A stretch of 64,000 nt of DNA, taken from positions 22,785 through 86,784 of the forward strand of contig CANHRI010000002.1 in NCBI GenBank assembly GCA_947463515.1, in the 5' to 3' direction. A program made the position numbers and the translations under genes. Source of the stretch: Flavobacteriaceae bacterium. GTDB taxonomy: Bacteria > Bacteroidota > Bacteroidia > Flavobacteriales > Flavobacteriaceae. Positions 8,023 to 57,214 of this stretch are shown piece after piece. Positions within the stretch are counted from its first letter, which is position 1, and every line of letters begins with the position of its first letter. The notes beneath the pieces were generated by a model, which saw nothing but the letters and a program-made list of their open reading frames with translations, did not search any database and had not been told where the DNA came from.

Positions 8023-8552
8023 GAAATAGGGTTAGGACGGTGGATTTGATACACAAAGTTAGTCTTTTCTGCTTCGCCATAATAAGCTACTTGAATTTCG
8101 TCAATTTTTTCAGCTCCTAACTTGGCCATGGCTTTCTGGGAGGGAATGTTCTCGGAACCCACATGAAAGTATACGGTATCGACATATTGGAATATGTAAT
8201 CTAACATGAGTTGCTTTATATCCGCATTATAGCCTTTGCCCCAATAGGTTCGCCCGATGAAAGTATAGCCGATGAAAATTGATCTTTCCTCGAAATTATA
8301 GGCGTAAAATCGGCTACATCCTACCACTAAATTGGTTTGTTTATCGAGAATCAACAAAGCCCCCTTGGATTGAATTGCTCCTTCAAAGTACGTTTGAAAA
8401 ACGCTGCGTTGGTAGCGATTGGGATTCGGATGTTGTTCCCAAACCAAGGGGTCAGAGGCCACCGCATACAGCATCTTAAAATGCGCAAGAGTCAAGGGAA
8501 TAGTATAAACCTTTTCGCCCTCCAAACGAGCGGGTTGTAGTGAAATGGACAT
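8019..8552 (-). CDS. GNAT (RimJ/RimL-like) N-acetyltransferase
   Basis: IGYTFIGRTYWGKGYN and NIPSQKAMAKLG motifs; ATGA-type overlap with addA. Confidence 0.85.
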   Translation of the reverse strand: MSISLQPARLEGEKVYTIPLTLAHFKMLYAVASDPLVWEQHPNPNRYQRSVFQTYFEGAIQSKGALLILDKQTNLVVGCSRFYAYNFEERSIFIGYTFIGRTYWGKGYNADIKQLMLDYIFQYVDTVYFHVGSENIPSQKAMAKLGAEKIDEIQVAYYGEAEKTNFVYQIHRPNPIS

Positions 8553-8661
8553 AATAAACGATACGTTAAACCTATGGTAAAATTGAAAAATAGTATTTTC
8601 TATTCCGAAGTTAAATGTATAAATTTGAAGTCAATTAAATAATCCTTTAAACAAAATAGTT

Positions 8662-9270
8662 ATGGCATTTGAATTACCACAATTACCCTATGCTTACGAT
8701 GCATTGGAGCCTCATATTGATGCCCGTACTATGGAAATTCACCATAGTAAACATCACAATGCGTATACCACCAACCTAAACGCGGCCATTGCGGGCACCG
8801 ATTTGGAGGGAAAGACCATTGAAAACATATTGATTAATTTGGACATGAAAAACGCCGCCGTTCGCAACAATGGTGGTGGATTTTACAACCACAATCTTTT
8901 TTGGCGTATTATGACTCCAGGAGGGGGCGGAAAACCCATAGGGGAATTGGCAGAAGCCATTGACCGCGACTTTGGATCGTTTGACGAATTCAAAGCCAAA
9001 TTCGCTAAGGCGGGAGCAACCCAATTTGGATCCGGTTGGGCATGGCTTTGTGTACAAAAAGGAGGTAAATTGGAAGTGTGTGCAACCCCGAATCAAGACA
9101 ACCCATTGATGCCTGAAGTAGGTTGCGGTGGAATGCCCATCTTAGGTATGGATGTATGGGAACACGCCTATTACCTTAACTACCAAAACAGACGTCCCGA
9201 TTATATTGAGGCCTTTTTCAATGTAATCAATTGGACCGAAGTAGCGCGCTTGTATGCTACTGAAAAATAA
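8662..9270 (+). CDS. sodA: Fe/Mn superoxide dismutase, Mn-type signature
   Basis: [34 protein letters not shown]. Confidence 0.93.
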
Positions 9271-9291
9271 CACGTAACTCACAACCAAAAG

Positions 9292-9324
9292 AAAACCCGA
9301 TTGATCGCTCAATCGGGTTTTTTT
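9292..9324 (+). terminator. sod terminator
   Basis: AAAACCCGATTGA-tcgc-TCAATCGGGTTTTTTT. Confidence 0.85.
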
Positions 9325-9329
9325 ATACT

Positions 9330-9404
9330 AAAAAAGACGTTCGTGGATACGAACGCCTTTTTGCCCCAAATCTACCATAAACTTAACCTACTAAATTCTA
9401 TGGT
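9330..9404 (-). ncRNA. Putative sRNA, twin copy B (about 75 nt)
   Basis: Own promoter TTTG(9440-9437)-N20-TAACTTTG(9416-9409); 39-nt core identical to copy A; ends in hairpin AAAAAGGCGTTCG-tatcca-CGAACGTCTTTTTT. Confidence 0.7.
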
Positions 9405-9408
9405 ATAA

Positions 9409-9440
9409 CAAAGTTAACAATATCGGCAGGGAAACCCAAA
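9409..9440 (-). promoter_or_regulatory. Bacteroidota sigma70-type promoter (-33 TTTG / -7 TAnnTTTG)
   Basis: Minus strand TTTG-ggtttccctgccgatattgt-TAACTTTG, 20-nt spacer. Confidence 0.75.
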
Positions 9441-9527
9441 CGTTTCTTAAAAAATAAGCTAAAAGGTAATAAAAAAAGGGTAGATGAATGTGATTTGAAA
9501 GGGGATGCACTGAAGTCGACAGAAAAT

Positions 9528-9600
9528 AAAAAAGGTGAAAGTAAACTTTCACCCTTTTTGCCCCAAATCTACCATAAACTTAACCTACTAATGCTATGGT
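9528..9600 (-). ncRNA. Putative sRNA, twin copy A (about 73 nt)
   Basis: Own promoter TTTG(9636-9633)-N20-TATATTTG(9612-9605); same core as copy B; different terminator AAAAAGGGTGAAAG-ttta-CTTTCACCTTTTTT. Confidence 0.7.
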
Positions 9601-9604
9601 GATT

Positions 9605-9636
9605 CAAATATATACCTGCCCTTAAGGTGATTCAAA
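9605..9636 (-). promoter_or_regulatory. Bacteroidota sigma70-type promoter
   Basis: Minus strand TTTG-aatcaccttaagggcaggta-TATATTTG, 20-nt spacer. Confidence 0.75.
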
Positions 9637-9689
9637 ATATTATTGATGAATAACCATAAAAATCGATAAAATGCATGTTTTTCAGAATT

Positions 9690-11588
9690 TTAGTAAGCAC
9701 GTGCATCTTTACCTTCATAAAAATTCATAAACGCTTTATTCACCACTCGGTTGCCCCCTGGCGTGGGATAATCTCCCGTAAAATACCAGTCGCCAACATG
9801 CTCAGGACAGGCTTTATGAAGGTTGTCAACTGATTGAAAAATAATATCCACTTCCGCATGAATACCCTCTGGTTTCAGAAGCTCAACTATCTTTTTTGAA
9901 ATCTCTTTATCGCTAAATAGCGAATAAATTGATTTCACATGATTAATAATCTCAGCATCTGGCTTTCCTTCTTGTGCTTTACATTGTTGGTAAACCGTAT
10001 CAACCAAATCATACTGCCCGCGTTCCTTTAAAAGCGCTATCGCGGCTTGAAAAGCAACCAAGCCTTCCAACTTAGCCATATCGATACCGTAACAATCGGG
10101 ATAGCGAATTTGAGGCGCCGACGATACTACTACAATCTTTTTCGGATTCAAACGATCCATCATGCGGAGAATGCTGTTTTTTAAGGTCGTCCCGCGCACT
10201 ATACTATCGTCAATAATCACCAAATTATCGCTGGGTTGAATAACTCCGTAAGTCACATCATACACGTGGGCTACCAAATCATCGCGGCTGCTATCTTCTG
10301 TTATAAAAGTGCGTAATTTGGCGTCTTTTATGGCAATTTTTTCCGTGCGAATTTTGACCGCTAAAATCTCTTCCAACTTTTCTTTGGTCAACGTTTTCCG
10401 GTGATCCAAGATATATTGGTTCTTGCGCTGATTCAAAAAGTCATTGGCCGCTTCTACCATTCCAAAAAAGGAGGTTTCGGCCGTGTTGGGAATGTATGAA
10501 AAAACCGTATTGTCAGTATCGTTTTGAATGGATTCCAACACATCGGGTAAAACAAGTTTCCCCAAAGCTTTTCGCTCTTGATAAATGGCCGCATCACTCC
10601 CGCGGGAGAAATAAATCCGCTCAAACGAACAGGCTCTTTTTTCGACTGCTGGTATAATTGACTCCGAAGTAACCGTCCCATTTTTCTTGATAATTAAGGC
10701 ATGACCCGGTTGCAATTCCTGAACCGATTCGAAGGCTACATTAAATACGGTTTGAATCACGGGACGCTCTGAGGCCACAACGACCACTTCATCATCTTCA
10801 TAGAAAAAGGCAGGGCGAATTCCCGCAGGATCGCGCAATACAAAAGCATCCCCATGGCCGAACAATCCGGCCATAGCATAACCGCCATCCCAACCTTTGG
10901 AAGCGCGTTTTAAAATGCGTTGTATATTGAGTCGTTCGGCGATGACCGGCGAAGCCTCTCGTTTGGACAAGCCTTCGTTTTTGCATTCCAAATACAAATC
11001 TGTGACCTCATCATCCAGGAAATGGCCAATTTTTTCCATAACCGTTACCGTATCGGCCATCTCTTTGGGATGTTGCCCCAACTCGACCAAACTAGCAAAG
11101 AGCTCGGTAACATTGGTCATATTGAAATTCCCAGCGACGATCAAATTGCGGTGCATCCAGTTGTTTTGACGTAAAAAAGGATGTACACTTTCGATACTGT
11201 TCTTGCCAAACGTTCCATAGCGCACATGACCCAAAAACAATTCGCCAATATAGGGTATGGTGGCTTTTTGCCATGCTACATCGTCGATTTTATCGGGATG
11301 CGCCGCCAAGTCGTTGGAAATTCGTTGATTGATTTGGGCAAAGACATCTTGAATCGGTTGCGCGTCATTGGAACGAATACGACTGATGTAGCGTTCCCCT
11401 GGAGCCACATCAAACTTGATCGAGGCAAAACCAGCGCCATCTTGGCCACGGTTGTGTTGCTTTTCCATGAGTAAGTACATTTTTTGTACCCCATAAAAAG
11501 CCGAACCGTATTTTTGTTTGTAATAGTCCAACGGTTTTTTCAACCGTAAGAGTGCAATTCCACATTCGTGTTTTACGGCATCACTCAT
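9690..11588 (-). CDS. purF: Amidophosphoribosyltransferase, long Bacteroidota form
   Basis: N-terminal KHECGIA (Ntn Cys), QHNRGQDGAG, GHVRYGT, IIDDSIVRGTT PRPP motif, PDCYGIDM. Confidence 0.93.
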   Translation of the reverse strand: MSDAVKHECGIALLRLKKPLDYYKQKYGSAFYGVQKMYLLMEKQHNRGQDGAGFASIKFDVAPGERYISRIRSNDAQPIQDVFAQINQRISNDLAAHPDKIDDVAWQKATIPYIGELFLGHVRYGTFGKNSIESVHPFLRQNNWMHRNLIVAGNFNMTNVTELFASLVELGQHPKEMADTVTVMEKIGHFLDDEVTDLYLECKNEGLSKREASPVIAERLNIQRILKRASKGWDGGYAMAGLFGHGDAFVLRDPAGIRPAFFYEDDEVVVVASERPVIQTVFNVAFESVQELQPGHALIIKKNGTVTSESIIPAVEKRACSFERIYFSRGSDAAIYQERKALGKLVLPDVLESIQNDTDNTVFSYIPNTAETSFFGMVEAANDFLNQRKNQYILDHRKTLTKEKLEEILAVKIRTEKIAIKDAKLRTFITEDSSRDDLVAHVYDVTYGVIQPSDNLVIIDDSIVRGTTLKNSILRMMDRLNPKKIVVVSSAPQIRYPDCYGIDMAKLEGLVAFQAAIALLKERGQYDLVDTVYQQCKAQEGKPDAEIINHVKSIYSLFSDKEISKKIVELLKPEGIHAEVDIIFQSVDNLHKACPEHVGDWYFTGDYPTPGGNRVVNKAFMNFYEGKDARAY

Positions 11589-11717
11589 AAATGGTAGTTG
11601 TGTTGTGTTTGTGTTGTTGTGTTGTTGGGGTTTAGTGTTCTGAAAACCAATGAAATTCTCGGAACTTCTATTTTTAAAGTAAACAAAAATGCCCCGAAAT
11701 TTCGAGGCATAAAGTTA

Positions 11718-57181: not shown

Positions 57182-57214
57182 AAAAAAGAGCCTCAATAAT
57201 GAGGCTCTTTTTTT
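57181..57214. terminator. Bidirectional terminator
   Basis: AAAAAAAGAGCCTCA-ataa-TGAGGCTCTTTTTTT. Confidence 0.88.

Follow-up and report, generated by a model that had tools for sequence, protein, structure and literature searches.

The interval between a superoxide dismutase gene (sod) and a purF-like gene in a 64,000-nucleotide (nt) stretch of Flavobacteriaceae bacterium DNA (contig CANHRI010000002.1, positions 22,785 to 86,784; hereafter the window) contains two near-identical genes for small RNAs (sRNAs) in tandem on the minus strand, copy A next to purF and copy B next to sod. We consider it very likely that these are two independently transcribed genes of a Flavobacteriaceae-wide sRNA family, whose products would be stress-induced, trans-acting base-pairing RNAs with a dose set by copy number. 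Sequence comparison shows the window RNAs to be homologous to two sRNAs of Flavobacterium psychrophilum, Rfp13 and Rfp15, and their family was published in 2021. An earlier note on this DNA had proposed paralogous sRNA genes here without recognising the family; the paralogy is supported by the Rfp13 and Rfp15 homologues in the same two contexts and by covarying terminator stems, and the family turned out to have a name already. Within the window, the two genes are ordinary orthologues of published sRNAs. What is new here, as read from the compared genomes, is that Rfp13 and Rfp15 are paralogues of one family spanning the Flavobacteriaceae, together with its purF–sod synteny, its tandem arrays and its dual upstream repeat.

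The two genes and their parts are located as follows.

9528–9600, minus strand: sRNA gene copy A, purF-proximal (covariance model 91.4 bits, E 8e-19; fold z = -4.0; aligns with Rfp13)

9331–9404, minus strand: sRNA gene copy B, sod-proximal, the positional counterpart of Rfp13 (covariance model 76.3 bits, E 2e-15; fold z = -4.9; aligns with Rfp13)

9553–9591, minus strand: exact 39-nt repeat in copy A, holding the hairpin loop, the 3' arm of the 5' hairpin (P1), the unpaired AGAUUUGGGGC and the A-run (repeat search)

9356–9394, minus strand: exact 39-nt repeat in copy B (repeat search)

9605–9636, minus strand: core promoter of copy A, with TTTG at 9636–9633 (-36 to -33), 20 nt, TATATTTG at 9612–9605 (-12 to -5), 4 nt and the start (direct reading)

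9409–9440, minus strand: core promoter of copy B, with TTTG at 9440–9437, 20 nt, TAACTTTG at 9416–9409, 4 nt and the start (direct reading)

9571–9600, minus strand: P1 hairpin of copy A, with arms at 9600–9594 and 9577–9571 and a loop that bears the invariant UAGGUUAAGU (fold and alignment)

9560–9570, minus strand: unpaired, near-invariant linker AGAUUUGGGGC of copy A, which may be a seed or a site for protein binding (fold and conservation)

9528–9559, minus strand: intrinsic terminator of copy A, consisting of A-run, hairpin and T-run (terminator scan and covariation)

9331–9362, minus strand: intrinsic terminator of copy B (terminator scan and fold)

The 39-nt direct repeat is exact, as the earlier note had observed, and the similarity of the two copies outruns it to reach the ACCATAG start, with a single 1-nt indel. 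A repeat search allowing up to 3 mismatches found these two copies and no others in the whole window, against 0 expected from 100 shuffles. Two independent long metagenome contigs from this species match the window without a difference over the entire spacer, and the duplication is therefore not an assembly artefact.

Each copy is preceded on the minus strand by the TTTG-N20-TAnnTTTG promoter that had been described for it, and the TAnnTTTG box keeps its distance from the start in 249 copies of the family. The pattern TTTG-N19–21-TAnnTTTG occurs 7 times in the window, compared with 2.1 expected, and two of these occurrences precede the copies at identical distance. Transcription is predicted to start at A9600 for copy A (ACCAUAG), ending in the U-run at about 9533–9528, and at A9404 for copy B, giving RNAs of about 73–75 nt in both cases. 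When folded (as RNAs of 74–76 nt), both form a 5' hairpin followed by some 11 unpaired nt and then a terminator (z scores -4.0 and -4.9). The proposed layout of an ACCAUAG start whose 5' end pairs with UUAUGGU, a separate terminator for each gene and a length of 73–75 nt is thus supported by the folds, by the terminator scan and by the mapped Rfp13 homologue. Separately, an 11-mer, TTTGAATCACC, occurs twice in the copy A promoter on the minus strand, at 9636–9626 over the -33 element and at 9608–9598 over the -7 box and start, which may represent an internal duplication or a coincidence.

The family was recognised by searching the core sequence in the supplements of an F. psychrophilum transcriptome study of strain OSU THCO2-90 (Guerin et al. 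2021, ISME Commun 1:33, Tables S2, S3, S8 and S9; PMC9723704). Rfp13 is an RNA of 73 nt, made of CCATTACATAAGTAGGTTAAGTTATGGTAGATTTGGGGCAAAAAAGG followed by a hairpin and a T-run, with a SigA-class promoter and a start site mapped at 208135 by 7237 reads; Rfp15 is 66 nt long, with a start site mapped at 251488 (PMC9723704). Both window copies match Rfp13 from GTAGGTTAAG through ATGGTAGATTTGGGGCAAAAA, the sole difference being a 1-nt gap, and the predicted start A of ACCAUAG is the equivalent of the A at which SigA-type start sites are mapped in F. psychrophilum. The likeness extends from homology over the whole body to the predicted 5' end (A/CCAU...), a similar length, the layout of hairpin, linker and terminator, the neighbouring genes and a predicted SigA-type promoter. 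In F. psychrophilum the two genes are 43 kb apart, Rfp13 in convergent orientation to sodA and Rfp15 90 nt past the end of purF (PMC9723704). The window differs in that its copies are adjacent and both intact, whereas Rfp15 lacks the AUGGUAGAUUUGGGGC block; copy A, which sits 90 nt past the purF stop, is the positional counterpart of Rfp15, yet its core is intact and of the Rfp13 type. Rfp15 (Table S8, PMC9723704) retains the 5' half (…GTAGGTTAAGTTTAT) without the ATGGTAGATTTGGGGC block, and on this reading of its sequence it may be a decaying or neofunctionalised paralogue.

Expression of the homologue is the basis on which the behaviour of the window RNAs is predicted. Rfp13 is labelled 'induced under iron depletion', and its signal on the array, log2 9.4 in early growth, reaches about 17 (17.1) in stationary phase and on agar; it shares one co-expression cluster with Rfp15, and its profile is unlike those of purF and sodA (PMC9723704). 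Table S9 of the same study lists Rfp13 homologues in F. johnsoniae, F. columnare, F. branchiophilum, F. indicum, Cellulophaga and Zobellia, and the portions of the paper covered here make no mention of Rfp13 and Rfp15 as paralogues, of purF–sod synteny, of tandem arrays or of upstream repeats (PMC9723704). Our literature searches found no second paper naming Rfp13 as an sRNA, no paper with the core sequence in its text and no functional study. The core sequence is not in the F. columnare transcriptome supplements, and a 2022 paper on iron in F. psychrophilum does not discuss the RNA. Rfp13 and Rfp15 are both missing from Rfam, and a permissive scan of 8500–10500 against Rfam 15 in E-value mode gave best scores of 18–34 bits compared with thresholds of 45–100, all of them driven by the terminators, and no Flavo-1 match.

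We traced the distribution of the family by scanning a core-derived pattern over one genome per species; family counts (loci, genera and synteny) are among the matches listed and hence lower bounds. The core, whose conservation in related genomes had been proposed as a test of the sRNA genes, is kept in at least 120 loci and at least 37 named genera, including Flavobacterium, Maribacter, Zobellia, Winogradskyella, Aquimarina, Kordia, Gillisia and Leeuwenhoekiella, and every locus belongs to the Flavobacteriaceae or to unclassified Flavobacteriales or Bacteroidota metagenome-assembled genomes. Among the matches listed, the array lies downstream of purF and on its strand in all 101 loci in which the 3' end of purF is included, the first sRNA start lying at a median distance of 102 nt beyond the purF stop, and it is convergent with sod in 89 of the 89 loci that hold the sod 3' end; both neighbours are present in 77 loci. 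This constant synteny implies that the purF-[sRNA]n-sod arrangement is ancestral and that the separation of the two genes in F. psychrophilum arose later.

A covariance model built from 50 distinct family members, a step that the earlier note had suggested along with the Rfam search, returned exactly two full matches in the window, namely copies A and B, and at least 217 strong matches in 100 loci. A profile search counted at least 253 copies in 121 sources, from 1 to 6 per locus, the number per locus being a lower bound because the loci were cut as 8-kb slices. Copy number seems to depend on lineage. Arrays of 4–6 copies occur in marine genera (Zobellia uliginosa, L026 801–2040; Maribacter, Pricia and Ulvibacterium, L016, L008, L036 and L047), and these genera also carry a variant class in which AUGGUAAGAUUUGGGG precedes A or ACG.

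The sequence of the family is constrained at the RNA level. In a model-fitted alignment of 127 distinct sequences, compensatory changes are seen at 9 of the 12 base pairs in the terminator helix, where 99.9% of cells are paired; each of five summary measures lies above all 500 shuffles and all slid controls. The alignment includes about 75 G-U cells that would give A-C mismatches on the opposite strand, and the transcribed strand is therefore fixed. P1 (ACCAU/AUGGU plus two weaker pairs) is almost invariant, with isolated compensatory cases (C-G to U-A and A-U to G-C). About 40 nt are near-invariant in all, and the blocks GUAGGUUA and AUGGUA(A)GAUUUGGG hold even in 78 copies that fall outside the search pattern. 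Two other readings of the element were tried and rejected: a plus-strand reading, for which the folds are weaker (-16.5 and -15.7, compared with -21.7 and -24.3 kcal/mol), G-U becomes A-C and no plus-strand gene lies downstream; and coding potential, given the frame-shifting indels, the variable ends and the fact that the plus-strand open reading frames of 35 amino acids at 9301–9408 and 9495–9602 start inside terminators.

Upstream of the genes, conservation is concentrated in the promoter box and in a repeated motif. In 249 start-aligned upstream regions, T, A, T, T and G occupy -12, -11, -8, -7 and -5 at 88–97% (G at 69%), and the box keeps a fixed distance from the start, internal array copies included. 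The -33 region of these promoters is merely T-rich, with G at 18%, and this weak element suggests that the promoters depend on an activator. A 14-nt motif, TGCatTTcATCgAA, occurs twice upstream of most copies, at sites starting at -74/-54 (or -75/-55), and among the 165 promoters in which two sites score above 6 bits, 147 have them spaced by exactly 20 nt. The dual repeat lies upstream of first, internal and last array copies alike, so most copies are probably co-regulated; its placement suggests a shared, putative activator site. Its two versions in the window are as follows.

9642–9675, minus strand: dual direct repeat of copy A, a putative activator site, with site 1 at 9675–9662 (TGCATTTTATCGAT, 14.1 bits) and site 2 at 9655–9642 (TGGTTATTCATCAA, 7.7 bits), 20 nt apart at -75/-55 (motif scan)

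9455–9493, minus strand: degenerate, mis-spaced repeat remnants before copy B, 7.1 bits at -64 and 4.5 bits at -89, with no canonical pair (motif scan)

The two window copies match TTTG perfectly at -33, unlike most of the family, and copy B may be independent of the activator in this lineage, as its degenerate upstream sequence would allow. The suggestion that the sibling genes answer different signals therefore does not hold for the family, in which the dual repeat is mostly shared and Rfp13 and Rfp15 cluster together; it may hold for the window, where copy B lacks the canonical element. No other dual-repeat promoter was found in the window, the remaining pairs (2, against 0.76 expected) being located within coding sequence and about as frequent as chance predicts.

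We compared the repeat with the sites of LytTR-type response regulators, which consist of two imperfect direct repeats of 8–13 bp lying about 12 bp apart upstream of the promoter, with critical spacing (PMC4064291). The family repeat, with a core of about 10 bp (GCatTTcATC) and 20 nt from start to start, fits this layout, copy A having the pair and copy B lacking it. The likeness to the AlgR core CCGTTCGTC is loose, with 1 exact instance, and CGTTYRTC is matched by 26 of 498 sites. LytTR-type control may thus serve as a lead rather than a result, and AraC-type activators would fit the repeats equally. A profile of the 249 promoters showed no conserved element at -32 to -13 of the kind expected for a Fur-type operator, and at the array loci no regulator gene or candidate partner protein was found in conserved synteny.

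The comparison shows the gene structure, homology, synteny and strand of the two genes and selection on the structure of their terminators, while start site, size and induction of the RNA are shown in the homologue; control by an activator and base-pairing with targets are inferred. Each gene has a Bacteroidota housekeeping-type promoter, from which an RNA of about 73–75 nt would start at the A of ACCAUAG and fold into a short 5' hairpin displaying the loop UAGGUUAAGU, the unpaired AGAUUUGGGGC and a Rho-independent terminator. By analogy with the homologue, little of the RNA would be present in early growth, and its level would become very high in stationary phase, on agar and when iron is depleted. 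We propose that induction acts through an activator on the direct repeats at -74/-54, an element that copy A has and that is degenerate upstream of copy B. The invariant unpaired loop and linker would pair in trans with several messenger RNAs (mRNAs), and tandem copy number, 1–6 in the family and 2 here, would set the RNA dose.

In water and soil, Flavobacteriaceae play a major part in breaking down organic matter, and some of them are fish pathogens; to our knowledge, almost nothing is known of RNA-based regulation in them. Among the transcripts of the one species studied, the Rfp13-family RNA is one of those induced most strongly, and it is a strong candidate for the first family-wide global sRNA regulator because it is near-invariant across dozens of genera and always in the same place. 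A wider proposal, which we put forward tentatively, is that the Rfp13 family is a core riboregulator of the Flavobacteriaceae, driven by a starvation, iron or stationary-phase activator, amplified through its arrays and acting with two invariant segments on a conserved regulon or a protein partner, the copies in the window being in the course of diverging in their control. If true, the family would be a functional counterpart of the global regulators of the PrrF/RyhB or Csr type in a lineage that, as far as we know, lacks Hfq and CsrA. The comparison turns a line in a supplementary table into testable hypotheses: it points to two segments that may be functional, to a strictly spaced candidate site for an activator and to copy numbers that vary naturally (1–6), and it supplies a covariance-model seed for Rfam.

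Several observations weigh against the account of stress-induced, base-pairing RNAs. The loci were gathered with a core-anchored pattern, so that their conservation is partly built in, an effect that the 78 pattern-independent copies offset in part. Covariation support for P1 is thin, and the hairpin rests mainly on conservation and thermodynamics. The public RNA runs found for this organism consist of assembled contigs, which break at the repeat. The Rfp13 co-expression cluster includes a transfer RNA (PMC9723704); the array profile could therefore partly reflect the recovery of small RNAs, and the shared clustering is to be read with caution. Target prediction gave little: a duplex scan against the start regions of 53 window genes was unremarkable, with sod and purF within 1 standard deviation of the mean, and a scan of start regions across 84–89 genomes gave mean z scores of -0.73 for sod and -0.25 for purF, neither significant. 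On neighbouring genes no signal was seen for the pairing of the core with A/C-rich leaders that the earlier note had suggested. The published CopraRNA predictions (top 31) are mostly gliding, adhesin and housekeeping genes, with no iron-sparing set (PMC9723704). Finally, some 40 invariant nt exceed what a base-pairing seed needs and therefore leave room for a protein partner. As a separate observation, the best predicted duplex between the sRNA and sod mRNA overlaps the start codon (window 8662–8690) in 44 of 84 genomes, a weak signal that is inseparable from coding-sequence conservation.

Such a partner is the substance of the main rival, which we judge unlikely: that the RNAs bind or titrate a protein in the manner of CsrB/RsmY or 6S RNA, the loop and linker being recognition sites and additional copies adding titration capacity. 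It would account for the near-invariance of this segment across genera whose PurF proteins are just about 60–70% identical, pattern-independent copies included, for the presence of up to 6 gene copies and for the extreme abundance of the homologue in stationary phase, when the array signal is near the top of the scale; the lack of a convincing predicted mRNA target also speaks for it. However, these RNAs lack the short motif that sponge RNAs carry repeatedly within one molecule, they are short with a single hairpin, no candidate partner is encoded in conserved synteny nearby, and the succession of 5' hairpin, unpaired stretch and terminator is the usual architecture of base-pairing sRNAs, which is the reading that we prefer.

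We also weighed whether the element acts in cis on the purF and sod 3' ends, as a stabiliser in the 3' untranslated region, a processing site or a bidirectional terminator module. Its position right after purF is invariable (101 of 101 loci among the matches listed), its terminators are symmetric (A-run, hairpin, T-run) and score on both strands, and the terminator scan found no further terminator between the purF stop (9690) and 9559. At the transcript level, near-identical metatranscriptome contigs cover the core and both copies, and in an isolate transcriptome one contig extends from purF across a single copy and stops shortly beyond the terminator of that copy. Because this contig spans purF to the first-copy terminator and no other terminator lies between 9690 and 9559, the copy A terminator probably also serves purF. 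Contig ends at 9600 were considered as evidence for the start site and set aside, being better explained by assembly-graph branching where the copies diverge. A purely cis-acting role is nevertheless very improbable and was rejected: every copy, internal ones too, has its own promoter box at a fixed distance, the strand is fixed by G-U pairs, and in F. psychrophilum Rfp13 has a strong mapped start site 43 kb from purF and a profile that differs from those of purF and sodA.

A tiny peptide deserves hardly any credence: an ATG does open a short frame within the core of both copies (in copy A, ATG GTA GAT TTG GGG CAA AAA GGG TGA, encoding MVDLGQKG), but this ATG lies within the P1 stem, the frame enters the variable terminator so that the C-termini differ (8 amino acids in copy A and 16 in copy B), a 1-nt insertion (ATGGTAAGATTT; AUGGUAAGAUUU) shifts it in at least 33 copies, and the A-run varies from 4 to 7 nt. 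Lastly, the chance that the element is a mobile or REP-like intergenic repeat or an assembly artefact is negligible, for although short-read assemblies break at the repeat and one contig joins 9355 to 9553, the two long contigs agree with the window over the whole spacer, only two copies occur in 64 kb and the location is fixed and syntenic in at least 120 genomes.

Tandem sibling sRNAs with a similar organization are known from other bacteria. PrrF1 and PrrF2 of Pseudomonas aeruginosa are tandem iron-starvation sRNAs and functional analogues of RyhB. The window genes resemble them in being two near-identical tandem genes, each with its own promoter and terminator, and in having a homologue induced at low iron; a superoxide dismutase gene, part of the RyhB/PrrF story, adjoins them. 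They have no similarity to these sRNAs in sequence and no conserved palindromic Fur-type box, their upstream direct repeats suggesting activation, and the published CopraRNA top 31 lacks the iron-sparing targets (sodB, sdh, acn and others) of RyhB and PrrF. With no Fur-type operator and no iron-sparing targets known, 'RyhB-like' is an analogy only. As far as we know, Hfq is generally absent from Bacteroidota.

LhrC1-5 of Listeria and OmrA/OmrB of E. coli are likewise tandem sibling sRNAs, under shared control by one response regulator and with seeds that are C-rich or 5'-terminal. The window genes share with these the head-to-tail arrangement of short genes, the conserved core and the individual promoters and terminators, but their sequence is unrelated and their conserved unpaired parts are G/U-rich. 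The paralogous sRNAs of Bacteroides thetaiotaomicron, such as FopS, and the BTnc families of Rfam come from the same phylum and have the same promoter grammar and multi-copy character; there is, however, no homology to them (BTnc231 and BTnc049 reach at best 19–23 bits against thresholds of about 80, driven by the terminator), and the context differs.

The genes that flank the array, and the terminator that faces it, are as follows.

8662–9270, plus strand: Fe/Mn superoxide dismutase gene (sod), flanking the array

9690–11588, minus strand: purF-like amidophosphoribosyltransferase gene of 632 amino acids, divergent, flanking the array

9289–9324, plus strand: sod terminator, back-to-back with the copy B terminator (9331–9362) across a gap of about 6 nt

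Copy B converges on sod, and any read-through from it would run antisense to the sod 3' end. The leader of the purF-like gene (window 11589–11640, minus strand) has no Shine-Dalgarno sequence and contains CA repeats (…AAACCCCAACAACACAACAACACAAACACAACACAAC…ATG); a leader of the ACAACAACAC type is found again upstream of purF in other Flavobacterium genomes, in about 30 loci (for example L034, L072 and L122).

Short-read Logan contigs (k=31) that contain sod (L003–L007) stop 107–115 nt after it, at the 39-nt repeat; since the repeat breaks assemblies of the locus, draft genomes may hide copy number. Metatranscriptome relatives (runs X2/X4 and X24) show a 57-nt deletion between the copies (window 9467–9525), and one contig fuses the copy B terminator to the copy A core (9355 to 9553), reflecting either a one-copy genome or an assembly collapse. 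Elsewhere in the window, the terminator half of the covariance model picked out, on either strand, a perfectly symmetric succession of A-run, hairpin and T-run at 57183–57212, which is probably a bidirectional terminator.

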